From the NCBI GenBank assembly GCA_002633005.1, contig NMRA01000895.1, positions 1 to 48,330 of the forward strand: 48,330 nt of DNA. The letters are read 5' to 3'. Source of the DNA: Phoronis australis. Lineage: Eukaryota; Animalia; Phoronida. This document shows, piece after piece, positions 18,401 to 46,180 of the stretch. The stretch's first letter is position 1, and each line of letters starts with the position of its first letter. The notes below the pieces were generated by a model that was not told the origin of the DNA, ran no database searches, and was given only the letters and a program-made list of their open reading frames with translations. Position numbers and translations under genes: made by a program.

Positions 18401-18697
18401 AACATAGTCATTAACCGATTTCCTACGCATCTCAAACAACGAGCTATCTTTAAGAAATCTTTTCTTCAAAAGACGCAATCTTGCTTGTGCAAGTTCTTTA
18501 TTGTTAGGTAAATCTGGTTTCTCATCCCTCCAAGGTAACGCAACAGAATAATGACCTGTATTATCCAAAGAAATCGAACTCTCTATCTTACGCAATGCTG
18601 ATTTATCTTCAATAGACATCGCAGACTTTGGATCATGAGAATTGCAAAAACTCATATGAAAACATCTTATTAACTGACTGTTGCAAAACATCATCAT
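15455..18697 (-). pseudogene. BEL/Pao Pol (RT, RNase H, integrase), broken by frameshifts, stops and an N gap
   Basis: RT 17357-18697 (YVDD), RNase H 17101-17341 (FSDAS), and integrase 15455-16653 (H-H-C-C zinc finger, LDYFGP, SDN, VWER). Confidence 0.9.
16668..17100. other. Scaffold gap (N run) inside the retrotransposon
   Basis: About 433 Ns. Confidence 0.99.
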
Positions 18698-20699: not shown

Positions 20700-20728
20700 C
20701 TCACAGTTAAGAGCTTATTGAGAACCAA

Positions 20729-21125
20729 TGTGAGTGCTTGGCAAGTCAAGAGGAGTTACATCTTTTTAAAGAGCTTTATTGAGAGACGTGAAACATTTCT
20801 CATTGACATTTTCACAGTTCTTCTCTGTTTCAGTTCTAAAAATAAAAAACAAAATGCATAGCAAACCTCAAAGATACAGACAAAATGCAAATTCGGAAAT
20901 ACCAAATACGAAAACACCATGAAAAATACCTCAATACTGCCGCTCCCTGGCTCTCTTCCCTGACGCCAAATATGCACTGCCACAATGTGAGTAAATCGAG
21001 TCAGCGCACAAAACTTATACTGAAATGAGGGTCAGGTCATATGCAAATTACATTCAGTCCATTCAGTCATGAATATACACGTGACCATGAGCCACCCGGA
21101 GCAAACAAACGTGAAGTATCTTACA
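20729..21125 (-). repeat. 5' LTR of the BEL/Pao element
   Basis: Reads TGTAAG...CACA on the minus strand, followed by TTGGTTCTC (PBS-like). Confidence 0.95.
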
Positions 21126-21834: not shown

Positions 21835-22034
21835 GTGACAAATCTACGTACATGGTCGGCACCTACGGTCCAAAGTCTGACGAACCTCAAGAATGGACTT
21901 CCCCATCGGAAGAGATTCCCAAGGGACTACTGTATAGGGGCGAGTACGAATACCACAGCAAAATTTATGATGTTACAAAACACATTATAGGGGACTGGTA
22001 TTGGTCTGTCCACATTAAAAAAGACTGGGACTAG
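21835..22034 (+). CDS. RhoGDI: Terminal exon of a divergent Rho GDP-dissociation inhibitor
   Basis: Acceptor ttcttaattccag, then DKSTYMVGTYGPK..EWTSPSEEIPKGLLYRGEY..W.WSVHIKKDWD*. This matches the RhoGDI C-terminus (YMVGSYGP..EEAPKGMLARGSY..WEWNLTIKKDW). Upstream exons were not found. Confidence 0.85.
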
Positions 22035-22968: not shown

Positions 22969-23040
22969 GCACAAAAGGAGTAGAGAACTTGCCAAAATAC
23001 TTTTGAGTTCGTTTCAAGTACAAATATTAGAGACTGGGCC
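22969..23040. mobile_element. Right-end fragment of the Harbinger-like MITE family seen at 41395-41773
   Basis: GCACAAAAGGAGTAGAGAA...GAGACTGGGCC|CTG matches 41703-41776. It begins immediately after the single N at 22968. Confidence 0.7.
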
Positions 23041-23382
23041 CTGGTCACAATGTGAATGCTTAAATAAATTTGAAGAACTTACAGCTAATAGAAATCAGTA
23101 ACTTAAGCGAAGTTAACACAAATTAGGGAATGAAATGGAAAAACTAAGCATTATTATTTCATTCCCCAATTGGTGTAATCGTCATCTTTTATGTATGACG
23201 TCAATCCACCAGCCTCGAATTTCTGATGTGGCGATAGAAGTAAATATCTAGTTCGTATTGGTACAGTTTGTAACGTGCTTGATACTGTATAGTGCATTTT
23301 TAGCACGTGGCAGGAAGGGGATTTGCATGACTTGTGTTACTCTACAGTGTGGACTTAAAAGTTAGTGAGTTGTGTCTTGCAG

Positions 23383-26300
23383 GACGGACGAACAGCTTAC
23401 GATGTCTGTGGCGAAAATCCTCTTTGGTTATTTAACAAGATCGATGATGAGACTATCGAAACAATAAAGAATGTTCTTGAGGTAGGTAGTAGTGAAAAAA
23501 ACAGTAGATTCTGGTTACGAAGAATATATCGCTGTTTTTTGTGATTTATTTCATAAGCGTCGTGTCAGAATCAATTACTTGAAGGAATCTCGTTAACGTT
23601 GTCATTAATTGTCGAACCACCAAAATAAAACAACTCCCTTGTATTAGGGTGATTCACAGCAAAAGATGACAGGAGTTATGTATACTAAAAGCATCACTCT
23701 AAAGAGCACCTAGTGTTGAATATACGGAAGTAAATATACCACACTGTGGAGTCCCAAGCGGTAGTCACCTGCATTATTGGTGTTCAGTGCAAGGGACCAG
23801 GGAACCGATATTGCATGATATTATTGCTGAGTTTCTTCTAGTTAAGCTGGCTTAACTGAACATTAGCAACACTACCATATAAGACATTTCACTTTGATAA
23901 CTAAAATGTAGATCTGACACAGTACCGTTTACCGCTAGGATTCTATTTCAATCGGAGCTAGTGCGCCAACATGAACCAAACAGCACGTTTCCGTGACGTG
24001 ACTGTCAATTCTGTTTACATTTCGTTCACTTTAGTAATTCTTGATGAAATGAAGCGACAAAATGGCTGGAATAATCCAATAGACCAAATAGAGACCTGCT
24101 GAAAACTTTGATCAAATTTCCAATCTACACTGTACAGCTCAATTAGCGACATAGCATCAACGACTTAATTATCGTCTTTCATTAATATATAGTGCCATTT
24201 TATAAGGTTTTTCATGTCTCAGTGACTGCCAGTCTTGGACATTTTACTGTCTCTTTCAATCACTCAGAGTTTCGTGTTTTTCTATAGCTTTTAACGCCCA
24301 AGTATACGCGACGGACGCCTACCGCTTCAACTCATCAGACGTCGCAAAATCATTATCTCGTTCAAACCTGGCAACAATGTGCATTATGCAACACATTGTA
24401 AGTCTAAATGCCGTCACATCATGTTTGGTCAGTGGCCATGGGCTACACAGAAAACGATAGATGGAAATATCTACATTAACTGCTATACACCAAAAACCCT
24501 GTTTCAGATGTTGTTATTCTGTGAAATTTTGAACATTCTGTACACCATTGGGCTTGAATATAGCCTATTATATTCTCGAAAACGCTTCAAGAACGAAGAT
24601 TAAAACCTTCTGAAATGAAGGATTTGATCCAAAACATGCATTAATGTTTTTGCGTATCCTAACTATAATTAGATAGAAACACTTATGCTGGACACGCTAA
24701 GTAGATTTCATGCACTGGTGTTTCGCATCAGTTGTCTGAATTCTTCTAAATTGGCGCCATCACCCATCATATTTTATCCCCAATATGAAAGAGGGCCAAT
24801 TTTACAGAAACCGATGTTATTTTTAAATATTCCAGATGGTAATCATTCCACCTATTGCAAAAATCACTGATATGTCGTGTTACTGTTTTTACCTGACTTT
24901 TTCGTGCAGCCACTCTTTTTGTCTTCGCAATGAAATGACAAAATTGGCTCAAATACTCGATATGTACTTGTATTGTTTGTACGACGGTAGTGTTTATTCA
25001 TGAACGCTAAATGTAAAGTTTTCAAGGCGTGTTTTTTAGCATCCTGTTCTGAATGGTTATTTACGTTACTTATATAACTCACTGTAATTCCCAGAAACAC
25101 ATGAGACAAAGAAGTCACGGAAAAGAACGGCTACAAAGAGGTGGTGGCAGTGAAGTACGCCAGCGTGCCGCGAAAGTAGCGGCTAAGGGTTATTCCTACC
25201 GAAGTTTTGGAGCTGGTGAGTCCGAAAAGAACTAACGTCGCACTCAACAACTTTTGCTGATTTGGGGCTAGAACAAATATTAACACCAACAGTCCATTTC
25301 ATAAGGTGTACAAATCCTGAAAATGTGAACAGTATACACGGGAGAAGACGTTAAAAATCTTGCACACAGTGTATTGGAAGTTATTTCAATGTCAAATTTT
25401 CATCTTAAATGTACGACATTTCCACCCCAACGGCACCATTTGCTTGTGATTACTACGAACTTGTAACGTCAAAACCCTGCACTTTACGATAGTCAGGTGA
25501 AAAGTGGGTGTTCGCATGATACCTGAATCTCAAATTCCTGCTTTCAATCAATGAACTTCTCATAAAAGCCGCAGAGCTTCAACTGAGCAATATGTCGCTG
25601 CACGACATATATTTAAACTATTAGTTTCATTTGTTTTGTTGTCGGACAGGTCACTATTTGAGCCGTTAACGGTTTTGGTACATCCCGAAACATGACTGGC
25701 AGGTACATTGTACATACACATGTCAAGAATAGTCCTTGGGTTCTTTGAGCGTAACGGGTTAGCGACAACGAACAAATTTTCAGCACATCTAATCAATGAA
25801 GGATGCTGCTAAACCTCTATGGACAGCAGAAATAACTCATTTTTAACATAGTACATCCGTCATCAGGTATGCGATCCCACAGCTAGCTGATAAAAAGGAA
25901 AGATGCCCAGATTCCCTCCTCCCCCGCGTGCAGCATGGGCGTGCCAAAACCTTTTGCCTCCCATGGACAAGTTCAATCCGCAAACTGACCAGCCTTGCTA
26001 TCGCTCACCAATCTCTTTGAAGCGAAATCATTGGCAGAGACGTATAATACGCGTCTGTAAGAGAGGGACACCATCCGCTGGAAAATCAATGTGTGTGTGT
26101 AGGAAAGTCTGGTTACCGTGTACTTTGGAATCACATGCAACGGAATCTTCTAGTCATTTACTACATTTTGCGAAACATTTCTGTTCAAAAGCCGCGCATC
26201 AATGCCCATGCACCAAAGCTCCGCTATTAGGAGTGGCCTGAAACTTAAGCGTATGCGCTGAATTGCGACGCTTTATTGTTAAACAAGACAATTTCACAAA

Positions 26301-29300
26301 ACCAGTCTTTATCGTGTATTTTTTCCAAGTTGCATAATGAGATATTATATCATAATTATAAACTCTTATTCATGTACTTCCCAATTGTCGACCGTTGTCA
26401 TCGTTGAGCTTAGTGCTGTGTGTTTCTATAAGTTGTAGCGCGTTTTGGTAAAAGTTTCCTCCACCGTGGCTAAAGTATTCCTCTAATACAATGTAAAATT
26501 AACATTGTTATGACAATTTAAAAAGTTGTGACAATCTGTGCCTTCAACCTTGACCCAGAATGTCACAGTTTTGAAATTGTGACTTTTCTGGATGTTGTGA
26601 CAATTAAACCTGAATAAGTAATCACGAAAAGTTCTCAAAATTTACCCAAGTGTTTGCTCAAGCACAAGAGTTGTGCGATAGAGTTCAGTCCCTCGACGAT
26701 TACTTTGGAGGTCTTGGTCAATTGAGGACATTGGTGTTCTATGTTAGGAACCTGCTTCTAACGAGCATATTCCTAAGATTGGGAGGCTAACTGTAGATCA
26801 GACGGGGCCTCACAGGAAAACCCCTAGTTAAGTACTCATCGTCTCTAACAGCGGACTGAGTTCATCGAAAATCCTATTCAGAGCTCCATTCACACCGAAA
26901 TGAAAAGTAGTGACAAAAGGAATGAACATGTTCTTACTTTGCTTATCCATCTGGTCGTTGGGAACCAGTGCTGTAGTGGTAAAATTTGAGGTAAGTAAGC
27001 GCCCAAAGCCCACAGCATCACCTTCAGCACTGAACTTAACTTACGATGCGTAGGCGCTACGTTCAAATGCCAAAAGGGGGTTGACTGCGCCTTCGTGCGG
27101 CTACGCCCCACTACAGCTTTGTTAGAGACTAGGGGTTCCTCCCTTGAAATTGATTGTACCTTGGGCCGAGTGCTAGATACCAAACGTGGTTCGTAACCCG
27201 TATCAGCGAACCTAGTGAACAACACTCTAATTTCTCTACAGAAATCTGCCGCATCATCACGTTGTCTATTGTATGTCGCTATGTGGTCTCCTGTGCCCTT
27301 TTATTTTAGTCTAGACGCATTTCTGGAAAATGTGCATGTTAGAGGCATTTTTTAGTAAAAGTGAAGAACCCACCTTTTTAGCATAATTATGGTATGCTGA
27401 TTTCGATTATGCCTGTTCCCATGCTGGATTTTGAGTTTTTGACCATCTAATTTGCATAAACAAAATGGCCGCCAAACCAACAAGATAAGAAACATTCGTA
27501 AGATCAGGAGTACAATATGTGACGAATAATTAGGAAATTTTTGCTTCAAAAACATAATGTAAATGTGTTTAGATCACTTAAATTTAAGAGCATATTAATT
27601 AACGTCATTAAATTCCCCAATTATGCTAATTAGCTTCCGCCATTACCAAAAAATTCAAATTTCGGTGTAACTTTATCAATTTGCAGGCAACATGACAACT
27701 AAGGTGTCTATACCTATCTTTTGAAGGTCTAGAAAAATCATTATGACACATGTGAAGCTTTTTATTTCATCTTCACTAAGTTACAAATGTTCATTAATAA
27801 AGTCTGAAAATTAAATTAGAAATCATAATTATCAATGCTTTTTTGCGAACATCTCACTATTTAGATAAGACATAAAAGTATTGTAAACCAAACAACATGA
27901 CTTTTAAATACTGTTGTAAAGAGATGCATGGCCATATTGTCCCATTTTGGACAGGAACATACCGTCCTCACAGTCGACCAAGCACTCTGCTGCAGATTAA
28001 TGGAGCTTACGTGGTCGGTCCCAGAATACCAAAATATGTTAATACAGTACCTCATTAGTGGTTCTTCACTATCAATGAACTTTATTAAGGCCATAGAAGA
28101 TCACATGAGTGATTCCGGAATAGCTGAGGTGTGAATAGAGAGTGCAGTACTTGGTCAAGACCTATGGAACTGGTCCTTATTGAAAAGTTGTACTGCAAAG
28201 CTACAGTATGAGGGCACACAAACTGTCTTTGCAAGCTCTGTGGCATCTCCTGCATGTGTCAAGCTTTCTCTCGTTTATTGCAGAAGCGACTGTCATGCTT
28301 GTATTACCAGTATGTCTGCAGATGATGATCCAGAGTTTTTAACATTTCTCAATTAGGATAAGTTCAGGAAACTCCTGGGCATTTTGTCAACAGTAGTTCT
28401 GATGATGTGAATTTCAGCTTCTGGTGGAGTTAGATGTACATGGTTCCAATATTGTTAAAGGACACATGCTCTTAACGGGATGGTATTTTGGAACTGCATC
28501 TCTATTCATTTGCTCTCGTGCTGCCTCACCGAATTATGCCCGAGTGGGGTGCGGTCTTTTTAGCGGAAATACATCAGCTTCCACAGTCTGGTCAGAGTTT
28601 CAAGCAGGAAATTTTGTAGTCAAGTGATCTCCTCATATGCTCTGTCAGGTAGATGCTGACCAATGGGTAAATGGGGCAGGCAAAAAGGAGGTGGTATCAT
28701 CGGTAATACCAAAACCTCGTCAGCTCTATGGATGTGGACACTCTCATTTAATCTGAAATCTCATATAGCTGAACAAACTTACTGCTGTGGGAGTACATAG
28801 TTTCATAACGAATCCACGAGGCAACTGTTGAGAGTTCCCTTCTTTACGCATTCCATGGATTGAAGGTCTTCTCGTCCGCAAGGCCTTAGCTGCTACAAAG
28901 CCTTGCAACAAAAGACCTAGCAACAGCACTAATCCAAGAGTCACTTTTACATGCCAAGGAACTTGGTCACGAACAAACTAAGAAATTTGTTCGAGACCGA
29001 TTATCACTGAGCAATGCGATAATTCAGACATGTCAATTCACGCGCCTATGCGCAAAAATAATGCCCCAACATTTGTCAACTTACATGATGTGGTGAAACA
29101 ATCCAAAGACAAAGACAAGAAAATAGTTCTTAAGGCAGAGAAAGATATACTTCGCTGCCTAGCTACGGCTTATGAGGTGGGTCGGCTAGTTGATTTGCCG
29201 TCTGTGCCGAAACGCGAGCTTCTTCCCGTCCATGTTTTCTTACAGAAACGAGTGGCACATTGCGCACTGGAGATAAATCTCCACTTGATGAAGTATTAAT

Positions 29301-32300
29301 AGTTAACGCATCGACTGTCCTAAAAGAATTCAACTTCATGGCTCGCCCGCTTGCCCATTTTTGATGGTGAAGCATTGCTGGTAGCTCTTGGGAGGCTTGA
29401 TGGTGATGTGACCTTCGAGAACCTGGCTGATTCATTCATGAAAACAGTGCTAAACACAGGATTTCTATATCATATAATTGACGTTGTATTTGACAGATAC
29501 AGACAAGAAACTATGAAATACACAACAGGAAAACAGCGTAGTAAAGGAATACAGAAAATCAGGTGATTTTTGGAAGGCCGTGGTGTACCTCTTCCTCAAA
29601 ACTGGTCAAATTTTCGGGCACCGGCTGAGAATAAGAAAGACCTAGCACATTTCTTGTCAGAGGAACTGTGTTTGCAGACACCTGAAGTTAAAGAGTTTAT
29701 GGTTGCATGAGGGTTCAAAGATGAGCTGGAAGTAAATTAAATCATCTAAGGTTATGATTGATTTGAGGACTCTGAAATCCACACATGAAGAAGCAAATGC
29801 AAGACTGGTACTGCATGCTGTCCACAGTCAGTCGTATTTCCAGAGACACCCGATGTTCTATTGCTTCTGGTATCACACTTCCAACAAATGCAAAGTGAGC
29901 ATATCTGTATGATGTCAGGCACATCAAAGAAATGACGATATATACATATTGAAGCACTTTTCAACAAACTACGAAGAGACTCAGCAACATTCTTTTTTGC
30001 TTTTCATGCCGTGACCGGATTTGGCACCAACTCGTACTTTGCCAATCACATGAAACAATCATCATGGAAGGTGTTCCTAGAGCATCACAGATTGCTTAAG
30101 AACCCCTGCATTGGTGAAATCACTGAGCAAATTACGATGGCTTCAGAAGTATTTGTCTGCAGAATATACAACACGACCTGTAGATGTAGCACGCCATTTA
30201 CTATTCTCCAACCCCGTGAACCCAGAAGTCCTTCCCCCTCACCCATAATGCCCGCCGTTTCCATCTGATGTGAGTGCACTATCAGGTCAAGGTATGGCGA
30301 AATGATCATTGTTCCATACCTGAGCTCCCAGCACCCTCTGATATGGGGGGACACACACTAACTTATGCTTGCAGTCCATACTGATGACACAGAGTTCTAT
30401 CCCAGACAGGTGCCTAGAGATGGTATTGTGTGCATGCCAGAAACAACGCAACAGTAGACAATGCATATCATTATGCTCATGCCAGCAGCACATTCCTTGT
30501 ATGCAAACAGTTTGATTTGCCTGGCTTTAGGCATGTTAAAAAGTACAAAAAAGTGAATGCTAAAACTGTGTTTAGCAGGCCTGAAAATAATTCATGCAAA
30601 TGAGAATTTAATGTCTTCAATAACAACAACTATATTGATTTTTTATGAATGGAAGATAACGGGATAGTGAAAAACATTTGTCCTATATTCCATCAAACTA
30701 GTGACACCTTGCTTGACGAGCATTGCAGATTAATGACTATTTTTTCCCCATTCTGAAAGTATACATCTGTAACCCAATAAATATGAAATAAATTGCTCCA
30801 AAAATGTCTTTAGCATGTTTGTTGACCATGAAAATATAAGTATAAACAACTCATTTTTCAACTTAGCCTGCAGGAACACAAATTTTAGACGCAAATTACA
30901 TTGTATGGTAATGGCGGCACCTAATTTGCATAATTAGTTTTCAGAGTTGCATTTTTTAGTATTCATAAGTGATGTATTGCTCAAGAAGTATTTATAAGAA
31001 GTGTACAGGTGAGACATTTCACCATTTTAAATGGTATATGGTGACTTCTATTACAAAAATACATTCTGAACTTGACAATTTGGCCGCCATTTTGTTTATG
31101 CAAATTAGATGGTCAAAAATACAAAATTCGGCTTGGGAACAGGGTTAGTTGAATTCGCCATACCTTGTTTGTGTGAAAAAGTCTTGTTCCCAACTTTTCC
31201 TAAAAAATGCTTCTAGAACCTTATACAGGGCTCTTTTCAGGAAATGCGTCTAGACTATTTTAGAACCATCTATATGTACTCAGCAGTCTATAGCACACCC
31301 TTGACAAAGAGCGCATCGACGCCACTCGGGCGATAATTCTCCAAAATCCACTCGGGCTCTAGATAACGGGGCATAACGACTTCGCCATGTAATAATCTAT
31401 ATATATTTTAGTACAGACGCTCGTCGTTTTAGTTTTGCTATTTCATATTTTTATTCGTCGGTAACTGCACCGCATTCCAACAACTATTTGATTTGAATAA
31501 TTCCCACTTAGCAAGAAACATTCGTATAGTTACGCTGCTAGTCGGCGGAGCCGGACCGCCTGGCCTGGCTGCCGTGCGCGGCCAACTGTGGTCTTCGTGG
31601 CAAGGTGAAAACATTAATTAGCTACCCGGCCCTGAATGATTGAAATTCCCGTGACAAAGGGATTACAAAATACTGCGTCTTGCTCCTAACACTGCAATAG
31701 TTTCCAATCGTCGACATTCAGCTCACTGACAAAAATTCACCACACTCCCCCGCCCAGGTTTGCTGCGCGGAATTATATATTGTAATATTGTTTTTGTGAG
31801 GTTTGAAAATATATTTTCCCTGATAATTGAAAATCAGAACCAATTTAGCAAGTGATAAATTTTCTGTGGAAGTGTCACGACCACTGCAGGCCTGGAATTA
31901 CCGATACTTCGCAACTTACCGTGTCCTGGCAGCAAAATCAAGCAGAGATGGGGAGCTGACTGTTTTGGAATAAAATTTGTTTTGTTTCTGGAAACATCGT
32001 CGTATGCGGATGTTTTTTTTTCTATTTTACATGATTGTTAAACTATCAGTCAACCCAGTGTCGATTTGCTGCCAATCAGTTACGAACTGCACTCACACGT
32101 CCGGGTTTTCACTGTGACACGGCATTTGCTCCCTCCAGGCTGGTACTTTGCATCAATTTCAAGATATGGCGATAAAGATAAAACATGTGTTGATCTAGAA
32201 ACTTTTTTCCTGTAATCTATTTCCGAAACGGGTATTGTGGCTAATTTGGCTGACCTCAGTAGCCAAGAGGTGGCTACGCCGGAAACTTCACGACGGTACT

Positions 32301-35300
32301 TCGCAAACGTATAAATATATATATTAGATTCCATTCGAATATGCAATGAAAAAGTAAAATTAGAACAATAAGTAATCATGTTTGTATAAAAAAAACAAAA
32401 TGAGAATCAAAAACAGTCAAAGTAACGACGCTTTTACGCTAACGGTGATGTCAATACGCTTTCAAGGACAACATGCCTGACATTCAGGAATCGTTCCTGA
32501 ACTGACACACCGGAGATCAGGTCACGAAAATAGAAGTGAATACTATTCACTTCTGTTTTGTAGCTCGGCCGAAAATCAACTATTATAGTCGATGATTTTC
32601 GGCAGGGGTACGAAATTGGGCAAAAAGTCTTTTAGTTTGATAACAGAAAGGAAAGGATGTCACATAATATATTTTAAAGTTTTTGAACTAGAATTACCTT
32701 TGAGATGTGGACATTAAGAATCGTGTGGAATTCTCCCTCAGAATTTTTATCAAGAAATGGTTCTATCCAACACCTGTTCCATTTTCACCTATTTTCCACA
32801 AGAAATGCTTTGAGGCAGTTAGCACTTAACATCTACTGGTTGTATGGGGGAAGTGTTTGTGCAATGGTTCCTCTTTTATGTAATGAAGGCTACCTTAGTT
32901 TTCAACGTGTAGTGATTAACAACTTCCACTGAGTGCTTATTAACGATACAAATATCATTCACTCTAATCCTCAGAAACACACGAGACAAAAAGGTCACTT
33001 AAAAAAATCGAAGAATGTAGCAGTGGCAGTGAAGTTCGACAAGGTGCGACGGAATTAGCGACTGCGGGCTCATCCGACCACACTTTAGAAACGAGTGCTG
33101 GTGAGTGTGTACTCAACAATTTTTGCGGACTTGGTGCTTGAAAAACCAGGTGGGGTCAGGTGTAACAGTCTGTTCCACAGGGTGACCAAAAACTGAAACA
33201 GTGTGCTGCGGGTAAAAAGGATAAAAAGCAGAACATATTCAAAAGTTAACCAAATGCTATTTGTATCCTTCAGCTGCCGCACATGCGTTCACCCAAACTA
33301 AATCCGGGGGATCGATTTTTTGATAATGTGGACCTTTTAGTATTCTCATTTGTTTGGATATTCTTCTCATTTTCTACATATTTTACATTATTCGTTTCTC
33401 AGAGGGACCTTTTTACCTACCTGACTTCGCCAAATTCGAGCCCTGCTAGCACCGTGGATGAAGTAAACAACACAAAGTTAAAATTACCAGCCAACCCTGC
33501 AGTTGCCAATTTTTAATGGAATTGAACTTTTGGTGCAAAAACTATTTGATGTGAGACTTATGTCAATCTATGATTTGCAAGATGGGTCTATGTCAAGCAG
33601 ACCGCAAAATCACTTTCACATACTTGTCAGTTAAGTTCCACATAACTTTAAAGTATCGGTACTTGACTGGAGATATATGTTGACCATAATGATTTTCTGT
33701 TGAGATTATTGCTCTGATCAAGGTCTATTTCAAGCAAGTTTCCCATTGGAAGCTATGAATGGCACACATTCTTATTACATTAGGCGCTTTCTCGTAGGTA
33801 TAATCTTTAGAAGGCTTCTTTAATATTACAGGTGTTATTTCATGTAAACTGTAAGATATCCCCTATTATCTCGTCCCTTAAAACATAGACATTTGCCGTG
33901 AATTATTAACTCCTGCGTGTAACCTGTATATTAAATTTTAGAGCTTATGAGCCCGAGACCTTAGGTGCGAGAGTTTGCACTGTGAATCACCGATTGTCTG
34001 CTTTATTGGGTTTTGAGTTGAAGTTGTCAAATTATAAACCTGATTACAATTTTTCAGTTTCATTTTGTAATTTTTGTTCGTCAAGCGATACTTGTGATGC
34101 TTGAGTTATTATTAGTTTATTTGACAATATGCAAACTTACAATAATAAGTACAGTAATAGGTACAGAATGTAAATAACACTATCTGGATAGCACCAAAAA
34201 ACTTATTCCTATGGTGGTCCATACCCAAATTCAAAAATTAAAGAAAACATATATTAGAAATAAATATTAGATTATGAATACCTATACAGGAGAAAAGACA
34301 TACGAGATAGAAAATAGGTATAGATGAAAACAGCCGAAAAGGCTGAAGACTGAAATGACATGATATTTGACAGCAAAAAAGCAAATGAAAAAAATGACAT
34401 TAATAAAAAAATCGAAGATACAAATGTACATTATGCTTCCCTCCATCAATAAAAATTATTTGGTTTGTCGTTTAAAATTATTCAAATGTGTAATGTATTT
34501 CTTGTGGCCAGCAAGTGAATTCCAAACACGCATGGTTGAGTTTAAACAAGTTTTGGATGGTGTTTTCTAACTCTTAGCTGCGTAAACCACCATTGCTCCT
34601 TTTACTTCTGTGAGCATGGCGTGATTTATACTCTGAAGTGATCAAGGTCCTTAGGAGATAATTTAGGCCTTTGCCATGAATAATTTTGTGAATAACGTGG
34701 AGATTGAGTTGGTTAATTCAATTTTCAATATTTAGGTGTAAATTGAGAAAACATCTAATTATTTTGTTTTGAAATACCTGCAGCCTTTTTCGAAGTCAAA
34801 CTAGTTAACCAGGAAAACCAGCTCGAAGAAGCCTAATCAAACAATCGAATTCTTAGTGAATTGCATAGGGTTTCACGTGAAGTAAGATTGAAACACCCTC
34901 TATGTCTGTTCATAGATTTTAATCTGCAGTTATATTTATATTTATAATAATAGACTTGACAGTCCCCTCAAAACAGAGCTTGCAATCCATTTGGAGACGA
35001 GGATAACGAGGATGAACATGAAGTGATAATACTACCATTACATTTAAATCCACATAGTTTTATTAACTATGAATAACTGATTGAGTTTTATCAGCATGAA
35101 AAGATAGGTTGTTGTCAATAAATCAACCACATGATTATATCTATATCATGGGTAAGAATGTGCGTACAGAAGAAGATTACAGCCAACTACATGTTTTATT
35201 TCAATGACCTGCATGAGAAATAACAAGGGGCCTAGAACAGAACGCATGTCATCGCTTAAAGTAGTATGTCAACATGCTGGACTCAGGTTCAACTAGACTC

Positions 35301-38300
35301 TAACCATTTGGCAGAACTCTGTGTAAGACCAATATATTTAATTTATCAATCAAAATATCATGATTTGTCGTGTCTACAGCCTTCTGTCTATTTCCAGAAT
35401 GGTATTCATAGCGCAAATTCAAAATCACTTATTCAAACGTGCTAAACACTAACATGAACAATGAAGTGATCACCCATAATCTCTAAAACACTATGAAGCA
35501 AATACACCTCCGAAATTTAGTGACCATCGTTTCAATTCTTCCCAACCATTGACATATCTCACTTCTATCCCTTTAGCAATCATTGATGGAGCAGCTGGTG
35601 GTGTTATTCAGTGGAAAGAGATTGGACTTAAAATACCGCCGAATGCAATAGCTGGACACATAAAAGTTGAAATAGTAGACCAGCAGTTATTAGTGCAAGC
35701 AGTACATGACATCACGGAAGGCAAGGCTCTCCTCCATCGCCAGAGGATTTGGGTGACTGGTGCGAATGAACATGCAACATTCTCTGAGCCGGTAGAAGTG
35801 CGAGTGAATGTTAGATCAATGTTGGAAGCAGCGAGTGATATTCGACTAGACAGTCAGGGCTTTCATATATTGCGCGAAAAAAATGGTGAGATAACCGACG
35901 TTACAGAAGACTGTAACATCAGGATGCATGGGGAGGAAGTAGTGTACTACTGTAAGACTTTTAGTGACCTTCATGTTGTATTTTTGTACACTGCAAATCT
36001 TCTGAGATTCATCAAAAATATTATCAAAACGTCATACAAGTGCAAGATATGCCCGTACATAGAAGGTGGACAAAATGGAGGACTGGCAGTCAGTCTGTAT
36101 TGTCACGGCGTAAACGTCAGATGTTCTGGTGACCTTACACACACATGTATGTCAGAAATCAGGTGCTTGAGAGATAATGCACGGCTCCACTTTAAAGCTA
36201 AGTGCCTGGGCAGTAAGACTAATAAAGAAGAACACATATCTGCTGATGTTGAGCTTGACCGGAAATCTTGTGAAAGTACAGGCACACATTTTGGTGAATC
36301 TAAGCATGACGTTAAACCTCTTGTGGCGGACACGGTTCAACTGGAGGTGGAAGAGTTAAACTATCACAAAACGCTGCTACGCAAGCCTGTGAAGGTTCAT
36401 GTAAGCATTTATTTTAATAGTTTTTGTGTTGATGAGCGAGTGCATATGTGTGAGCCTGGCTGCATGACGTGTATTAGAGTGCACAATTTTGGTAGATTCG
36501 TTGAAAGGATTTGAAGTGGCGGCGGTGAGAATGAGAAAGAAGTATCCCTTTGATCGGTTTTCGTGATCCAAAACCAATGTGACTGATCATCTGACTTTCA
36601 TACAGCTTGTGATTTCCTTGCTGCAACCCAACAATTCTATGTTGTACAAACACTTTTTGTTTTATACCTTGAGAAATACCAAACAAAGCCACATGGGCCG
36701 CGTTTTTTATTTTTGATTCAGACAATGTAGCCGAATCGACACAACATGTACGTAAACGTTATATTATGGGCCATGACTTAATGCTGCTTCGCCAAATTCT
36801 TTACTCCACCAATATTATCCTGCATCACAAATTATTTGCTATTGGCAACCATTTCCGCATCCTTGGCGTTTCCATTTTCTTACCCACCCCCTGCCCCTGC
36901 TTCGGGAGCGGGGAGCAAACATTGGGTTCGCAGTCACCAGGTAGACCTCAGGAAGGCTACGACCTCCCTTAGAAGCAGGACATTTCAAGATTGCGTGATT
37001 TGTTATTTCTTTAAATCAGAACGCGTGATTTGAGCTTGATTTAAGCGAAGTCCTAATGTGTGTCCTAGCGATTAGCAAACTAAATATTACCCCAGAAAGG
37101 TTCAATTGCTAGACCTGAACACGCTAATCGCAAACGAAACATGCTCTTATCAGAAAGCTTCTCAAAACAGAGATTTTATGTCTCAGAGGACATTGGCTAG
37201 TTTCATGTAAACAAACCCCATAATATATATACGTTTCCTGTATACTGAGGTTTTAATGTATGCTGATAGTTATCGTATTAAGCAAATTATGATGAATAAC
37301 GATTACAGTAATAAGTTTGTTGATGAGGATATGGAGCTTTTCATAAGTTGTTTGCACAAGCCTGTGTGTTTAAAACAACCAAGTGGTTGTACCAAGAAAC
37401 TATTCTACCGCAACCAATTCCATTCACGTTATATTGAAGATGAACGAGTTTTAAAATGGATCATCTATAATTATGTTAAGACCGTAAAGCCAGAAGATAG
37501 CCTTAAGTTAATTATACATTAACAAAACCATAAAACTAAAGACCTTGTTGTTAAAAACAATATATGCTCACAGAGTATGCCCGAGTGTTAGCCAAAACTG
37601 ACTTGATTTATCAGTTCAATTGCCCCAACAACGAATGTATTCGTTCAAACACTGATTGCTCAAGGTATGTCAGTTAAACAACTTGAATTTATCTGGCCGG
37701 TTATCTATGCATTTACAAAATAGATCAATTAAAGATCATTTTTAAACACTCCACAAACAGAAAATTTCTCGTTCAGATATTGTTGACATCACCATTGTCA
37801 GGTATTTCGAACGTGACTCCTTTCGTTTGAAAATACTCGAAGCTTTAATAATGAAGATACTGGGTTCCAACGTACCTTGTCGTTATATAAGTAATGTCCA
37901 TAAGTTGTAACACCTATGTATATGTATATGTATATGTATATGAATAAGTATATATATAATATGTATATGTAAAATATAAATCCATATAATTCATTTTGAT
38001 ATGGTCACCGGGGCGTGTGTTGGTCTGTTTGACTGATTTACCTCAAAGAGATGATACTGTATTAGTAACTATTAGTGTGTATGCAATTTTGTTTGGTTTT
38101 AGATGCATTCGGCTTGCGAAACGGAACCTGTTTCACCTCCAACCCGTGATATATCTGGTAAGCACTGCAACTTTACATAGGGTGAATTCGGTTCACCTTC
38201 GAAAGAAAGATAGTTTAGACATAATTGGTTTCGAAAAACCAAGATCTCGCGAAACTTTGCAAAATCAATCGATTGAAATGCCAGAGTTTGGCGATTATGC

Positions 38301-41300
38301 TTGGAAGCCCACTTACTAGACTGTCGTGCCAAACTCATTAAAAATGATTGAAATGATTATGCTGCAACAATTAGAGCGTTCAAATATGAGATCGAGGCAT
38401 ATCATATTTATTCAAAAAGTAAAGTTTTGTCACCACTAGGGCAAATCAACATTCCAATCTCATGCCGTCCAGTCACTTCGGTTGCAGATATTTTGATGTT
38501 TTGCATCGATATGCAAGTAATCTCCAGTGCATACTCGAAAAACGTTCACCTTTGTGTCGCGTGCCCTTTGCAACGTCCCGCAATATCTTGCTTCGTTAAG
38601 ATTGAAGTTGGGTTCCCGGAACAGCTTCCGTGTTAGGAAGGCCACATTTGCAAAAACACAAAGACATCTCGAATTGTAAGATGACAAAACATTTATAGAG
38701 AAGTCGTCGTGACGATTTTAAGCAAAATACGTGATCACACTTAGCTTTACTCTCTCTACTGCATGTGGAACGCTTGCTTCAGGATGTCCACTTCAGGCTT
38801 AGGCCTATACAGTAATCTGGAGTGCAGTGTACCTTTTGTGCTTTCAGTAAAGTTGATGGTATTGTAAAATGCAAGGTCACAAAAATCTCGATATATTTCC
38901 ATTTACATGTATTAAAACAGAAGTCCTTACTTCTCGTCTTCGAAATCGAGTCCCCATTTCTTGCAAAGAAAACGAGGCTTGGCAAAGGGCGCGAGAGAGA
39001 AGTGTATTTTCACATGTATGCGATTTTGCCGATCTTATATTTAGCACTATAATGATTGGTCGGCGACCTTGGGCGTTTGATGGTGGGGTTTTATTCACAG
39101 CTATTTTTTCCATAAAATGAGCAATTTGAATAGCAAATGTTTTACTATCTGAAGATCGATATAGGCCAGCAAGTAGTCCCCCGTCTAAAGCTTATTGGCG
39201 ATGTTGCTATTCTGTCGGCAAAGTGGACGCTTACATTCTCTAAAAAGGGTTCAATACTTGTGATGAACTGTACTGCATGCTAGAATGAATAAACAAAGAT
39301 GGGATTAAAATGAACTATGTGATCAGCAAATTTAGTTCGGTGATTGATAGCAGTGTCAAACATGTTGTCAGTATTCCAATCCCCACTTTTTGGAAAACTG
39401 CTTAACGTGGTGTTAAAAACCTGTTTTTTGTAAGTAAACTTGACAACATTGTCCTCGCACTGGATGTTGTTATAACATATTTCAATATCTCAGGTATTCC
39501 TCCAAAGGGATTTCTTCCAGCTGCTGAAAGTTTTCTTGTAAAAGATCATGTTTCCAATTGAAGACGTTATCAGTCTGTACCTAATATTTTTGACCATCTG
39601 TCGTACATGTACATGTACCAGTACGTGATGGAAACGAACTCAGTAATTTGTTAGCTCAATGACTCAGTGGTAAACAACTCCAATGCCAGCTCATGTCACC
39701 TTAAAAATGACATCTAGCACGACCTCTATTCTGTAAAATTGTCTCAAAATATGTGAAATGCAATCGTGACTCGTGTCGTCTGGTTATGCAGAGTAGAACA
39801 GCAAGTACTGGAAGATTGCGTTTTAATGAAGTTGGAGTTATCCTATCTTGAGACAGCATTAGATCATCTGCAAACTAGCAAAATACAAAATATCATTACC
39901 ATTAACTTATAAACGTGTCAATTGATTGTCAGGAATCACGGACTGGGCAACTGAACTTCATTACAAGCTGTTGCAGAAGGTGTCTGACAGTGTCAGGAGC
40001 GAGGATTTTAACAGACTGAAGGCAGAGTGTCGACGTTGGATCACGTAAGGAAATCAGCTTTGCATGTTTATGAATGCATATACTGTTATGACGGTACTTC
40101 AAAGATATGCTGAGTACTGCTTTGGCCAATCAATAACTGCACATTTTCAAGTTAAATAAACTAGATAAGTAGCGGTCGAGTAAGTCAAAACCCCATAAGC
40201 TTCGTATTCCCATCACTTTAACACTCGAGAACAAGAACTGTCAATTTGCCGTATTTCACGCCTCCATTGTTGTCATAGACGTAAAATTAGATCAGTCACC
40301 ATTGCGTGATACATGGCGTCTTCAGCTAATAGTCTCATTAACATCAGAGCTCCCAAGATAGCTTCAAGTCTCAACGAGATCTTTTTGAGATTAATACATG
40401 GGCGCCGCGTCATAGGGAGCTGGGGTGTATAGGCTCCCACTTTTTCCAGTGTTTCGCCGCCCATGGTCTACGGACAGTGCACTGCATGGGGGTTGGGGGG
40501 GGGGGGGCTATAGGTAACCCCAATTTATTCAGTTCTGCGCCGCTCATGTAAAAGTGGACGGATTCAATAATGTTTATAAGTTGTGTGTAGGCTCAATGGG
40601 GAAGATTGGGCGAGATTTCGTACATTCTTGTATCTTTCGATCAAATGCTTTTGGAAATCTTCCATAACTCCTCTCATTATCCGATTTTTTCAAGTTATTT
40701 CAATCGGGGCATCAGATGTATGTCAAATAATGTTATTCAGTTGTCAATTATAAGACAGCTCTGTTATACAAATTATTTACATAAATGTGTTAGTGAGTAC
40801 TAAAACAGGTGAACTTATCTGTGAAGTTCAGTAAGGAATGTGAACGTCTGAATGTTGCGGGTGAGTAGAATATGGGCTTTTTAGGGGTAATTTTAGAATA
40901 AATAGTTATGTCTCTGCATGCATGTGCTCGAAGATTCTTCAACTGTAAATGAAGTTAATGTAAATGTCTTGATTAAAGGCCAGCAACACTACAGGGTATA
41001 ACAAGCACTCGTGAACTCCTCGAACAACTCGAGAGGCAAGCGGTTATTGGATTTGGGAAGTACAGCAATCTAATACATATACTGGGTCTGGTGGATCTGA
41101 ACACTCTTCAGGTTACAGTGAAAACATTATCACAAGAAATAAATGCACTTGGAATAAGAGGTAATTTTGATCTATTTCAGATGACCATATACCTGTTATT
41201 ACTGATTAAATGCATTTGTTATATTTTGACTATATTTATGGTTTCGATGTCTGCTGTTACTGCAATGGCTGGTGAGTACGACAAGCAATAATGCTCGATT

Positions 41301-44070
41301 TTAATGTCAAATCATAAGGCAATAAGACCTGTGTCGAATTGATCCGCCTGGTGCATGAAAACCTCCAATAAGAAATAACATTTTTTAGCTCCTGGGCCCG
41401 GTCTCCAAACTTTTTACTCGAAATGGAACTCGAAATTAAGTTTGGCATTTTCTACTCTACTTTTGGGCGAACTCAAGATAAGTGTCTATTATTCTATGCT
41501 CGAGTACACAATAACTTACGTAGATAATTTATTGCCCTTAGTTCACAGTTTGTAAAACCAATATTAAAGCAATAAGTTCGAGTTTTTACTCGAGATTGTA
41601 GCACGAATATAAGGGTCTTCAAGGGCAAACTTGATCTAGAAACTCATATGCATAAACTATAATGTATTCGAGCACAGTCTCATAACCAATTATCTTAAGT
41701 TCGCACAAAAGGAGCAGAGAAATTGCCAAATAGTTTCGAGTTCATTTCGAGTACAAAGATTGGAGACTGGGCCCTGGATGGTTTTGAGTATCTCTGACGT
41801 GGCTATAATTGATGTCAATGGTAAACGTCATTTTCTTTTGACAAAACTGGCCTCAAACCCACATTGCCTTTGGGTTTTTTGTTTAAGCTTGCCTTGTCAA
41901 TAACCAGTCTAGACAAATGCAGTTACTGTTTTATGAAAGGATTGGATAAAACTCGTATGAAATATTCACCCATAACTAGATGTTTTTCCCTCCTTGCAGT
42001 TTGAAACCAGGACAGCCGCATAATTTGGGTTATGCACTTGAGACATAGTAAGAACAATTGCACAATGTATAGACAATACATAACAACAGGATGGACCCAG
42101 TGCACTGTTAAATTGGCAAAAGATACATATTGAGTAACTGTTCAAGAGGCTTTTAGAATAACAATAGATCCTCGTAGTTCACATAGTCAAGTTGGCTTTT
42201 TATAACGTCTTTGATCCCTTGTGCAAAATTAACAACGAAATAAGACAGTTACCAGATCTGCGGTTATCTTTTGCAGTGGACATAACACACTTACAGTAAG
42301 TATGTTTACCCGAATGTAGGCGTGGCAGAATTGTATTGCCACTCCCCATTGACACCAGTGCTAGACAAGCATTTTTCATCAATTACATGCCCACAAATGT
42401 TGTCAATCAGCCACCCTTTCCTCGACAATATTTATGTATCTGTGTCGACAATTCGCGCACCATACAAATCATCGAATCAGTGATCACGTTGTCAAACATA
42501 CCTTATACAACTGTACAGTGTAGAATTTTCAATTTATTTACAGGACCACCGGATACGGCAGTCAATTCCCACAGCCAGCAGTTAGAAGAGGATACTAAAA
42601 CAGTTATTACGTGAGAAAAACAACGTAGATTTAGGTCTCAACAATGAGATTAATAACCAAATAAACAAGCATGCCTTTCACTATTGGCGTCATCTATTGC
42701 TAAACGTGTTGCAGTAGTGTATAGATTCAATTGGACTCTTTGCGTTAACTTAAGCAACAAGCGTTTTACACGACTGAGCATTTTTATTTCATGATGTTGA
42801 AAACTGTCATTTCTCCTCATTGATTCTAACGTTTTAAATAATTTTGATTGGGACACTATAAGTAGTCCAATTTATATGCTGTTGCCAAAAACCATACAGT
42901 CTTTTATTTTGATTGGACTATGGTTGTATACAAAGTACTGTACATGTGGCCATTTTGGTGAAGGTAAAAGGTAAGGTTTAAGACTGAATATTTCGTACGA
43001 GTAGGATTTTATTGCTTGAAATTTCCAAAAAAAAATAAAACTTAAAAAGAACTTTCGTATATTTTAAAATAGTTTGTGTTGTTTTTAACTCGATTGATCC
43101 AACAGCAACGCAATTGCTAAAATTTAATCACTTTTAAGAATAAGGTTTGCATTTGAAAAGTAGTAATTGACAGTGGCAATTATTTTTGTTAGACTCCAAG
43201 TATTTTTGAAATTCAAACATTTGCCTTTTCGCGGTTTTGATATCAGTCTTTGACAACTCACCATGAAAGTCTTATGCAGTTCCAAGTTCCCTTACTTCTT
43301 TTTTATCCGAACGCCATTGATACCAGTTGGCGTTGTAATTTCTCTGCGCACAAAACACTCAGTGTATAGGCTATCGGTGACGGCAATCACACCATAGGTC
43401 CGTCATAAAATCAGCCGAAATTATGACACCAGAACTCGAGTACCATCTATGACTGAAATTACAAATTCCCTTTTAGTGCATAGTAAAAAAAGCGCCAATA
43501 TGTGGATTCCCCATCTCTAAAGTATTAAATAAAATGACACAATTTGCAGAGATATTGAACAATCAGTAATCAGTTGCCAGTAGCAAGTATGGGTAATCGA
43601 AAGGGAACTAGAAAACGATTGTAAAAATTCAAGTCCAGTCAATTCATTTATAGTCGGTTATGGTAACACAGTAGAACAATATGTCCACTGTCTATTGCAG
43701 TATACTGAAACGTAAATACATAGAGCAACAAAGGAAAAATTACGTTTTAATCAAATATCCTAAGGTATCTAGGGTTTCGTCTACAGAACTGACATAAACG
43801 TCTTTTGGTCATGTATTTATATTTTCATCAACGTTCTTCAAACACCAGACATATTCCACTTGGCAATTGTACCTCTTAGCTCTTCGTCTTTCACATAGTT
43901 GAGTCAACTATTATTCTGTGATTTAAATGGTTTGCACTACATATGACTTCATTTTTTTCAGGTCCACCAGGGGCATGATTATTGACTTTGGACCGTTCGG
44001 GCTAACTGTGTGCTCTGTAGTGGCAATTTTAGTTTCATGTATTTTCCTGCATCTCATAGGTGTTCTCTGA
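23383..44070 (+). CDS. 5'-partial multi-exon gene: ankyrin repeat - ZU5/UPA-like - death effector domain - C-terminal TM protein
   Basis: Exons (phases): 23383-23481 (0-0), 25095-25215 (0-1), 32975-33100 (1-1), 35577-36400 (1-0), 38103-38157 (0-1), 39933-40044 (1-2), 40979-41160 (2-1), 42544-42610 (1-2), 43962-44070 (2-stop). All are AG/GT bounded and total 1695 nt with no internal stop. Linkage of the first three exons is less certain than that of the last six. Confidence 0.72.
27307..31257 (+). mobile_element. Academ (AcademX-type) DNA transposon, decayed, intronic
   Basis: Termini TAGTCTAGACGCATTTC ... GAAATGCGTCTAGACTA, long imperfect TIRs (over 170 bp, sharing TTTTTGACCATCTAATTTGCATAAACAAAATGG), and TTT on both flanks. 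Disrupted + strand coding: VLTVDQAL (transposase), FDGEAL, DVVFDRY, THEEANARLVLHA, FHAVTG (XPG-like nuclease) and a C-terminal Cys cluster. Confidence 0.85.
34380..35500 (-). mobile_element. Decayed CR1/L2-type LINE 3' fragment
   Basis: Minus-strand remnants SVLGPLLFL (about 35215-35245), FHADKT (about 35085-35102), LQVFQNKIIR (about 34755-34785) and VWNSL (about 34510-34527). Boundaries are approximate. Confidence 0.65.
35577..36400 (+). CDS. Large exon encoding a ZU5-like plus UPA-like region
   Basis: IIDGAAGGVIQWKEIGLKIPPNAI (ZU5 start, GG..L.IP.GAI), FSEPVEVRV and YYCKTFSDLHVV, followed by a beta-rich Cys-containing region. Acceptor ccctttag, donor CAT|gtaagc. Confidence 0.8.
37256..37860 (+). 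mobile_element. Penelope-like element remnant (RT C-terminus and GIY-YIG region)
   Basis: RIKQIMMNNDYSNKFVD..LFYRNQF..LKLIIH, then LIYQFNCPNNEC, RLSMHLQN, SIKDHF and LKILEALI, with stops and frameshifts. Confidence 0.75.
37915..37990. repeat. (TATATG)n / TA-rich microsatellite
   Basis: Tandem TATATG units are directly visible. Confidence 0.8.
39933..41160 (+). CDS. Two exons encoding a death effector domain (DED)-like fold
   Basis: Spliced 39933-40044 + 40979-41160 reads HYKLLQKVSDSVRSEDFNRLKAECRRWITPATLQGITSTRELLEQLERQAVIGFGKYSNLIHILGLVDLNTLQVTVK. This follows the DED pattern LL..ISE.L..EDL..LKFLC...I....LE.I.S..DLF..LE. Confidence 0.75.
40397..40548. mobile_element. GC-rich MITE, same family as 6753-6894, opposite orientation
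   Basis: CATGGGCGCCGC ... GCGCCGCTCATG, with internal blocks (CCCACTTTTT, CATGGTCTA, CCCCAATTT) collinear with the reverse complement of 6753-6894. Confidence 0.65.
41395..41773. mobile_element. PIF/Harbinger-like MITE
   Basis: About 40-bp imperfect TIR GGCCCGGTCTCCAAAC..TACTCGAAATG / ..TTTCGAGTACAAAGATTGGAGACTGGGCC, with a 3-bp TSD CTG at 41392-41394 and 41774-41776. Confidence 0.8.
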
Positions 44071-44954: not shown

Positions 44955-46180
44955 ACTAGAAATATTATTGTCACGGCGTGACAATAACGGACTCTGCGCG
45001 TGCGTATTACAGTAATTATTTTGCCAAGTTGCTGACAGCAACCCGTTTACCAATATGAAAAGGAATTCTTTAAAATTGTAGGATAATTTACGTATTAATT
45101 TTTGATGACCTTTCCACTAACTGACCTCTTCCGGTGCATTATGAGCCCCGAGGAGGGAGTAATTGTAAATACGATTAAAAGTGTAGTTAATGCTAAAAAT
45201 CACAGATGCTTTACTTTAAGCACTTCAGAATACAAGATCAATGAATTGGTCAAACATTTAGAAGAAAAATGAACCTCATGACCCCATGGGTGCACCAAAT
45301 GACCTGAAAATGTAGAATTCAAACTCAGTCGCATTTAGTAAACAAACATGTAATTTTGAATTCTTTAGCTCAAATTTTTAGTTTTGCACTCAATGACCTA
45401 TTTTTTCTGATTGGGTTGCCTATTGCGAAATAAAGTAGGGTATTCAATCGGCATGTTGACATACACCAGTGCGCTGAAATTGAAGGAAATTCCTTGAAAA
45501 ACGTAAGAGATATCACATTTTGAACGTTAAACGACCTTTGCACTAATTAACCATATCCGGTGCATTATAAGCGTCTTTAGGAGAATTATTGCAGAGCCCA
45601 TAAAAATGTGTTTAATGCTGAGAATCACAGTTGTCTATCGGTTGACACATCAGAATGCTTGCTGATTAAAAAGGTCAATTTTTCAGAAGAAAAATGCACC
45701 TAATGACCCCATGTTTGCACTAAATGACCTGAAACTTTGGATAACAAAATTTAGTTACCTGTGCCAATCAAACCTGTCAATTTGAAATTTCTAGCTCAAA
45801 ATTTTAGTTTGCACCTACTGACCTTTGACCTATTTCACTTGATTGGAGGACCCGATTACTTATGAAAGTAATTTCTAAAATTGCCTTATTGACTTATACC
45901 AGTACACCGAATTTGAAAAGAAAACCTTTAAAAATGAAGAAAGAGTAGCTTTTAGAAAATTACATGACCTTTGCACCAATCGACCTCTTCCGGTGCAATA
46001 TGATTATATAACGAATCAAAATTTATGTACTGTCAAAAGTCATATGCTGAATTTAAGGAACGTACAGTGTAGGTGCACCCATATTGGAGTTATTAAACCT
46101 CGAAGTTGGTCGAAAGAAGAATGAAGTTGAAGAAAACCCAGGAACAACAGTACTCTGTGTTTACACGCGCAGAGTAACTA
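44955..46180 (-). mobile_element. Helentron-associated interspersed element (HINE/DINE-1-like) with an internal ~430-bp tandem repeat
   Basis: Subterminal inverted repeats ACTCTGCGCGTG (44991) / CACGCGCAGAGT (46164), a local hairpin at 46151-46176, an 11-bp palindrome at 44965-44987, and a CTAG end. Repeat units start at about 45106, 45533 and 45965. Confidence 0.75.

Follow-up and report, generated by a model that had tools for sequence, protein, structure and literature searches.

What kind of protein is encoded where exons resembling a ZU5 domain, a UPA domain and a death effector domain (DED) lie in line on one strand, ahead of a hydrophobic carboxy terminus? The question is raised by contig NMRA01000895.1 of the phoronid Phoronis australis (assembly GCA_002633005.1), of which positions 1 to 48,330 of the forward strand, hereafter the window, were analyzed. 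The window is AT-rich (about 39% GC) and contains several single-N joints and one long gap. Between 23383 and 44070, nine + strand exons (E1 to E9) chain into 564 amino acids and a TGA (1,695 nt) with zero internal stops, exactly the count given in an earlier reading of this DNA made from its letters (the original prediction). The locus is a real gene whose architecture is probably ZU5-UPA-DED-tail behind a missing amino terminus. Our analysis puts a probability of about 45% on its product being a cytosol-facing, tail-anchored ZU5-UPA-DED protein that acts as an auto-inhibited membrane death-fold switch. The exons, and the features of E4, are:

E1: 23383-23481, + strand; 99 nt, phase 0-0, aa 1-33; an internal exon that is, at most, a degenerate ankyrin repeat of the capping type
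E2: 25095-25215, + strand; 121 nt, phase 0-1; low-complexity linker, a re-framed duplicate of E3
E3: 32975-33100, + strand; 126 nt, phase 1-1; low-complexity linker rich in Ser, Ala, Gly, Glu and Arg
E4: 35577-36400, + strand; ZU5 and probable UPA; donor at 36400
ZU5: 35577-35989, + strand; 5' part of E4, aa ~117-252
Thr243-Phe244-Ser245: 35957-35965, + strand; Phe-Ser at the ZU5 self-cleavage position, with Thr in place of His
UPA (probable): 35963-36400, + strand; 3' part of E4, aa 245-390, 146 aa
E5: 38103-38157, + strand; 55 nt, phase 0-1; Pro/Ser/Thr/Glu linker, placed by splice score and phase
E6: 39933-40044, + strand; 112 nt, phase 1-2; predicted DED helices 1-2
E7: 40979-41160, + strand; 182 nt, phase 2-1; predicted DED helices 3-6
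E8: 42544-42610, + strand; 67 nt, phase 1-2; polar linker with a weak donor
E9: 43962-44070, + strand; terminal coding exon, hydrophobic helix at aa ~538-564 up to the TGA; predicted tail anchor

AG precedes all nine exons and GT follows E1 to E8, with phases of 0-0-1-1-0-1-2-1-2 along E1 to E9. When exons were skipped one at a time, loss of E2, E4, E5, E6, E7 or E8 led to an early stop, and E3 alone could be dropped in frame. E2 and E3 belong to a tandem duplicate that includes intron flanks (25017-25276 and 32897-33145, 67% alike), with 85 of 127 columns identical between the two exons. A net gain of 1 nt near the 5' end of E2 gives it phase 0-1 and places its first ~16 codons in another frame. 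E2 may have been a phase adapter that enabled the phase-0 E1 to join the phase-1 ZU5 cassette.

RNA from three stranded raw runs (about 18-19% of each read) and one contig set was placed on 22975-37900 at 85% likeness. GT-AG joints were seen between E1 and E2 (16, 21 and 1 reads in the three runs), E2 and E3 (5, 16 and 3) and E3 and E4 (11, 8 and 14), each of them also present in one contig; the joint reads are all first-mate minus, that is, + strand RNA under the usual stranded protocol. Because most placed reads are less than 95% alike, they stem from a relative or from divergent alleles and not from the sequenced individual. Coverage of E4 is roughly 8-21x, and all four RNA runs fall to zero depth at 36421-36918. 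Since there is no stop at the end of E4, zero depth past 36420 means that the exon ends at the donor at 36400, which is also its best-scoring one, and must splice onward. The same zero depth argues against a longer E4 that runs on to the stop after 36511, and an extra exon near 34950-35020 was rejected because reads join E3 straight to E4. An apparent Leu-to-stop variant at 23429 was taken as an alignment artefact, as it adjoins a 5+1 nt deletion; the two best-supported E1 indels listed (5 and 1 nt) total an in-frame 6 nt. The exon chain is real, the gene is spliced and expressed, and the chain from E1 to E4 is correct, with next to no room for doubt. In the same data, one contig links a 26-nt E1-like piece (23383-23430) to an E4-like piece (35628), three contigs lie over E1, and one run has far more E1 reads than E1-E2 joints; this pattern hints at paralogues or divergent alleles.

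The 3' exons were evaluated with a generic splice score, with candidates filtered for phase compatibility. E5 ranks first of 100 phase-compatible candidates (8.7, as against -0.2 for the runner-up), and E8 first of 90 despite its weak donor. The E9 acceptor is in the top 0.2%; that of E7 is weak (top 26%). We hold with high confidence that E4 to E9 are joined as modelled. The original prediction had proposed one + strand gene and the mapping of RNA to its junctions: this mapping bears out E1-E2, E2-E3 and E3-E4, and E5 to E9 join the gene by inference.

The 5' part of E4 is almost certainly a ZU5 domain, a call on which several weak lines of evidence agree. In a Pfam scan of aa 117-253, ZU5 (PF00791) was the sole family listed (E=0.11; residues 5-79 on profile positions 7-81), at 13.3 bits under a curated cut-off of 21 bits; a scan of the whole exon gave no ZU5 match, and the Pfam scans gave no FIIND match. 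The ESM Atlas places whole E4 at 0.96 to ZU5-bearing clusters (180 of 256 features), whose few members with a record come most often from echinoderms and sponges. A remote ZU5 sequence signal above chance is carried by a GG-x-IPP-A start and an F-xx-PV strand. A hidden Markov model (HMM) of 10 bacterial ZU5 seeds (from 9 of 401 genomes) gave E4 4.3 bits, matched by 1 of 2,000 shuffles, and rank 2 among 540 open reading frames (ORFs) of the window; with 39 seeds, 29 of which had been retrieved with a profile that contained E4, the score was 11.2 bits, with 0 of 2,000 shuffles reaching it and rank 1 of the 540. A search with the ZU5 alignment returned 28 of 7,995 scored proteins, none with a death-fold Pfam family and the named ones bacterial, and sequence searches of the PDB with E4, E7, E1 and E6 gave chance matches or none.

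Structure comparison also points to ZU5. The unsteered AlphaFold2 (AF2) model, which is of low confidence, has ankyrin-B ZU5-ZU5-UPA as its top Foldseek match (E=8e-3); VIA, run on the single-sequence model (predicted local distance difference test, pLDDT, 37), ranked ankyrin ZU5 30th with Z 4.1. Given the 10-seed ZU5 alignment, AF2 reached a pLDDT of 78.9. This model, which is steered by a ZU5 alignment and so partly circular, matches ankyrin ZU5 at a Foldseek template modelling (TM) score of 0.64 and AnkB ZU5 at VIA Z 9.8 (root-mean-square deviation 3.1, 116 aligned). In the VIA ranking, ankyrin ZU5 (Z 9.3-9.8) stands above UNC5B (7.0), CARD8 (6.7) and NLRP1 (6.4). The ZU5-like exon of the original prediction is thus backed by the Atlas, by HMMs, by a sub-threshold Pfam match and by structure.

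The 3' part of E4 (aa 245-390) is likely a UPA domain, judging by its position, its length and the UPA-bearing Atlas rows (0.91-0.93 for E4); Pfam gave no UPA match in this part, and the unsteered model has a pLDDT below 50. Our analysis also reveals a Phe-Ser motif at the self-cleavage position, which is absent from the original prediction. Thr243-Phe244-Ser245 lines up with the (H)FS of three seeds in the ZU5 alignment (L012, L015, L020), and in two others (L013, L021) HFS stands a few columns earlier. In structural alignments, model residue 128-129, which is F244/S245, is where several GAIN chains stop, as does an NLRP1 chain whose last residue is 1212. A Phe and a nucleophilic Ser are therefore present at the end of the ZU5 domain, in register with known scissile bonds. 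The corresponding motif is His-Phe-Ser in PIDD1 and Ser-Phe-Ser in CARD8 and NLRP1, where Ser instead of His before Phe is tolerated, and CARD8 His-270 lies 27 residues upstream (PMC3210808, PMC9162469). In CARD8, mutating the Ser before Phe had little effect, and UNC5b has Leu where others have Phe (PMC3210808). On these sequence grounds, self-cleavage at Phe244/Ser245 is conceivable, with the odds leaning somewhat against it.

E6 and E7 together very probably form a divergent DED-type fold. Scanned as a single exon, E7 matches the Pfam DED (PF01335) at E=0.018 over profile positions 33-81 of 82, with 15.7 bits under a cut-off of 35.9. E6 alone had no DED match in the Pfam scan and none in the PDB sequence search; it would supply the 32 profile positions lacking before the E7 match. 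In the Atlas, the best named cluster for E7 is DED, at a value of 0.86 that counts as a lead only; 10 of 10 named matches belong to the DED family or clan, and two unnamed bacterial clusters outrank the DED cluster. A search for bacterial DED seeds had 0 of 401 genomes above the cut-off, and no such seeds were used. The proposal of a DED split over two exons thus fits the sub-threshold Pfam match and the Atlas.

The last ~27 residues of the chain are hydrophobic, and no basic residues follow the helix. Hydropathy in a 19-residue window (KD19) has its maximum of 2.65 at aa 545-563, the only peak above 1.5 across the 564 aa. Among 1,695 control tails built from acceptor-phase pairs on both strands, 13 reach at least 2.0 and none reaches at least 2.6, which places the hydrophobic terminus noted in the original prediction beyond chance. 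The C-terminal helix is likely a tail anchor; high hydrophobicity combined with the lack of a basic flank points to insertion of the endoplasmic reticulum (ER) type. A glycosylphosphatidylinositol (GPI) anchor was set aside, as the domains are of cytosolic types. Separately, the E7 frame continues into the intron (41161-41288, + strand) as a hydrophobic stretch and then a stop; intron retention may yield a shorter tail-anchored form here, or the stretch may be chance in AT-rich DNA.

Several results weigh against a tail-anchored ZU5-UPA-DED protein. Read support stops at E3-E4, and the five 3' joints from E4-E5 to E8-E9 rest on inferred exons. The Atlas recognition value for E4, 2144, is below the tool's 2300 mark, the 10 independent ZU5 seeds alone give 4.3 bits and an hhalign probability of 2%, and the single-sequence AF2 model of E4 is poor. 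The better HMM and the confident model owe part of their strength to E4 itself and to the ZU5 alignment, and the DED call carries a sub-threshold Pfam score and an Atlas lead. At E<=0.001, E4 has no sequence relatives among 1.84 billion representatives or 1,375 longer candidates, and E7 has none among 264 candidates. At the candidate cleavage site, there is no His directly before Phe, as in PIDD1, or 27 residues upstream, as in CARD8; the nearest His residues are 212, 233 and 248. In a by-eye alignment to the DED consensus, the RxDL place reads L486-N-T-L489 and the alpha2 Phe-Leu place reads A439-E440. These two surfaces are described as mediating FADD, FLIP and caspase-8 contacts (PMC4558505). 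With both absent by eye, the textbook FADD and caspase partners are not a safe inference. The recruitment of FADD or caspase-8/10-type proteins, assumed in the original prediction, loses its footing, and we consider direct DED-caspase recruitment doubtful.

How, then, might such a protein work? ZU5-UPA is a module of human sensors of cell death and immunity, and a membrane-bound switch built on it would likely serve one of these two processes. Its CARD8-like order, combined with masking of the UNC5/ankyrin-B kind, leads us to read it as an auto-inhibited switch with a membrane-bound UPA-DED output. The single C-terminal helix, lacking a basic flank, would insert post-translationally, most likely into ER or secretory membranes. 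The death fold would be masked by ZU5-UPA packing against it, as happens in UNC5B and ankyrin-B. Self-cleavage at Phe244/Ser245 may follow, and would yield an N-piece (the missing amino terminus, the disordered linker and ZU5) that stays attached to UPA-DED, itself tethered to the membrane. UPA-DED would be freed either when the N-piece is lost, whether cleaved off or degraded by way of its disordered linker in the manner of CARD8 and NLRP1, or when the conformation opens; it would then form clusters at the membrane and draw in a DED partner. With the canonical DED surfaces gone, FADD is a less probable partner than a co-evolved DED protein or caspase particular to the lineage. A bolder version, which we consider rather unlikely, is a self-cleaving membrane tripwire, in which destruction of the N-piece unmasks a tail-anchored UPA-DED, and this in turn nucleates DED-caspase filaments directly on an organelle membrane without a death receptor or FADD. 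If it were true, the 'functional degradation' logic of CARD8 and NLRP1 would be rewired to a DED, and the gene would found an invertebrate family of receptor-independent platforms resembling the death-inducing signalling complex (DISC).

The same domains could instead form a cleavage-dead scaffold of the UNC5 or ankyrin type, in which ZU5-UPA-DED opens on ligand or organises membrane proteins. His is missing at both known catalytic positions, the top structural matches (Z 9.3-9.8) are ankyrin ZU5 domains, ahead of UNC5B, CARD8 and NLRP1, and the ZU5 domains of ankyrin and UNC5B are not known to self-cleave. Such a scaffold is nonetheless unlikely, for Phe and Ser are both retained in register and CARD8 tolerates Ser before Phe. 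It is improbable that the protein is a membrane-bound decoy or brake, with a degenerate DED whose role would be to cap or sequester DED filaments, or to bind a partner outside the death pathway, in the manner of FLIP or PEA-15. Divergent surfaces can co-evolve with a paralogous partner, and UPA promotes death-fold oligomers in CARD8 and NLRP1 (PMC7794386); this is to be set against the by-eye absence of RxDL and of the alpha2 hydrophobic patch, and against the precedent of PEA-15, which binds ERK via its DED (PMC11874512).

The remaining explanations concern the gene and not its mechanism. E1-E4 and E5/E6-E9 might lie on different transcripts, or the tail exon might go unused: read support ends at E4, an ATG opens E5, and the E7 acceptor and E8 donor are weak. 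We give such an error in the 3' model only a small chance, as a stop-less E4 with reads ending by 36420 requires onward splicing, E5 leads its 100 candidates with exactly the 0-to-1 phase change needed, E8 leads its 90, and the tail exceeds all 1,695 controls. The locus might also be a young, weakly constrained exon-shuffling product of a fast-evolving family, expressed without a dedicated function. The lack of detectable relatives of E4 or E7, the origin of E2 as a frameshifted E3 duplicate, the several transposon-like inserts in or near the gene and the degenerate motifs would all suit this view. It is very improbable all the same, given a frame that is intact across nine exons, splice joints that are the same in a relative whose reads are mostly less than 95% alike, and two E1 indels (5 and 1 nt) that sum to an in-frame 6 nt.

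The tail-anchored ZU5-UPA-DED protein can be compared with three groups of known proteins. It resembles CARD8 and NLRP1 in having a low-complexity linker, a ZU5 domain, Phe-Ser at the ZU5/UPA border, a probable UPA, a short linker and a death fold. In those proteins, however, FIIND is followed by a CARD, whereas here a DED-type fold and a C-terminal hydrophobic helix follow; the motif is Thr-Phe-Ser, there is no His at the spacing of CARD8 His-270, the fold is nearer to ankyrin ZU5 and Pfam gives no FIIND match. In CARD8, the disordered region and ZU5 form a degradable inhibitor whose loss frees UPA-CARD (PMC9213247). PIDD1 (LRR-ZU5-ZU5-UPA-DD) and invertebrate PIDD-like proteins share a possible repeat region before ZU5-UPA-death fold and the Phe-Ser motif; unlike PIDD1, the protein has one ZU5 domain seen, no His-Phe-Ser, a DED in place of a death domain (DD) and a membrane tail, and no LRR was found in the window. 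UNC5 and ankyrin (ZU5-UPA-DD, the 'ZUD' supramodule) share the module order and provide the best structural matches, and UNC5 is also membrane-associated. UNC5 has its ectodomain and helix before ZU5, and UNC5CL has an N-terminal anchor; in the present protein the helix lies at the C-terminus and would thereby hold the death-fold piece at the membrane. Ankyrins differ in their long repeat arrays and two ZU5 domains. Auto-inhibition of UNC5 and ANK2 is described as UPA-DD folding back on ZU5 and being masked (PMC9162469).

The original prediction held that ZU5-UPA modules are followed by a DD and not a DED. This is too strong: 'Dog_ded', an uncharacterised FIIND protein with ZU5-UPA that is labelled as DED-containing, was listed in 2011 by D'Osualdo et al. 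(PMC3210808), and ZU5, UPA, DED, ankyrin and transmembrane (TM) modules are shuffled in invertebrates. 'Dog_ded' is a mammalian RefSeq model, 47% identical to the CARD8 FIIND, and is possibly a fusion of two genes made in annotation. Kaur et al. 2021 (PMC8195603) describe transposon-associated death-fold expansions in marine invertebrates that shuffle ZU5, UPA, DED, Death, ankyrin and TM modules. Their examples include Death+Death+TRADDN+ZU5+UPA in sea urchin, Ankyrin+ZU5+ZU5 in coral, DED+TM+GT4 in a hemichordate and DED+TRADDN+UPA+Death in a sponge; in the protein studied here, by contrast, neither TRADD-N nor GT4 is present. The strings UPA+DED, ZU5+DED and DED+ZU5 had 0 matches in 13 supplement files of that paper (file 4 in part), whose tables hold TRADD-N and GT4 proteins only and of whose ZU5 entries 51 of 96 (file 4) and 30 of 66 (file 6) were covered. 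The supplements of PMC2575513 and PMC8662601 contain no ZU5-DED protein. No description of ZU5-UPA-DED with a tail anchor was found in the literature searched, subscription journals and InterPro architectures being outside its reach.

On our best reading, the gene is a variant within the ZU5-UPA-death-fold kind and not a new category, and arises from an invertebrate gene expansion. The characterised proteins of this kind carry a DD (UNC5, ankyrin, PIDD1) or a CARD (NLRP1, CARD8), and PIDD1, NLRP1 and CARD8 all release soluble pieces. If the reading is true, a DED version with a C-terminal anchor keeps its active piece on the membrane and could feed DED caspases without a death receptor. The gene is then a test case for two questions: whether release by ZU5-UPA can operate with any kind of death fold, and whether Thr-Phe-Ser can self-cleave without the canonical His. 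Without a Pfam match over the cut-off and without relatives, it is invisible to standard annotation; such families are therefore probably under-counted. Marine invertebrates do shuffle domains freely, and the gene may be one more uncharacterised combination.

The amino terminus called an ankyrin sensor in the original prediction comes down to a single degenerate exon. E1 matched no Pfam family, and its PDB matches included no ankyrin. Against an ankyrin HMM of 48 bacterial repeats it scored -0.8 bits, a value that 1,024 of 5,000 shuffles equalled or exceeded; an anchored position-specific scoring matrix on its first nine residues, a post hoc test, was equalled by 106 of 20,000 shuffles, yet the score is below that of every seed. 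The 1,586 ORFs of the window and the 83 upstream ORFs yielded no further ankyrin exon. The form of E1 (99 nt, phase 0-0) fits that of ankyrin exons. E1 is possibly a capping repeat with a loop insertion, and an ankyrin amino terminus is a tentative call that we would sooner doubt than accept. The original prediction also missed that the gene is 5'-incomplete. A single-N assembly joint at 22968, 415 nt upstream of E1, lacks duplicated flanks, unlike the single-N joints at 17790 and 21721, and the 5' exons and amino terminus probably lie in an assembly gap there.

The remaining features in and around the gene are:

21836-22034, + strand: last exon of a divergent RhoGDI (Pfam E=1.1e-14), whose stop lies 1.35 kb upstream of E1
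14939-21125, - strand: BEL/Pao-type long terminal repeat (LTR) retroelement with terminal repeats 96.5% alike and matches to DUF1759 and DUF5641, interrupted by assembly gaps
27307-31257, intron 2: element with long inverted ends (67% alike), broken ORFs and antisense RNA reads
41390-41778, intron 7: self-inverted element of ~390 nt, similar to a miniature inverted-repeat transposable element (MITE), a piece of which recurs at 22969-23044
37200-37650, + strand: ORF remnant with some RNA reads and a weak Pfam match to DUF7774 only
500-6410, + strand: multi-exon glycoside hydrolase family 31 gene (Pfam E=5.5e-20)
10185-13120, - strand: possible membrane-protein exons
45107-46001: tandem pair of repeats

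The RhoGDI exon was set aside as a part of the ZU5-UPA-DED protein because it ends in a stop. No further RhoGDI exons were found among the 83 upstream ORFs, so that its 5' exons are likewise unaccounted for. The element in intron 2 is probably a decayed DNA transposon, and the remnant at 37200-37650 resembles, by eye, the end of a Penelope-type retroelement. The glycoside hydrolase gene has 11 bacterial loci at 28-44% identity. The possible membrane-protein exons contain two hydrophobic stretches and match no Pfam family at E<=0.01, and the repeats of the tandem pair are ~460 nt each and 70% alike.

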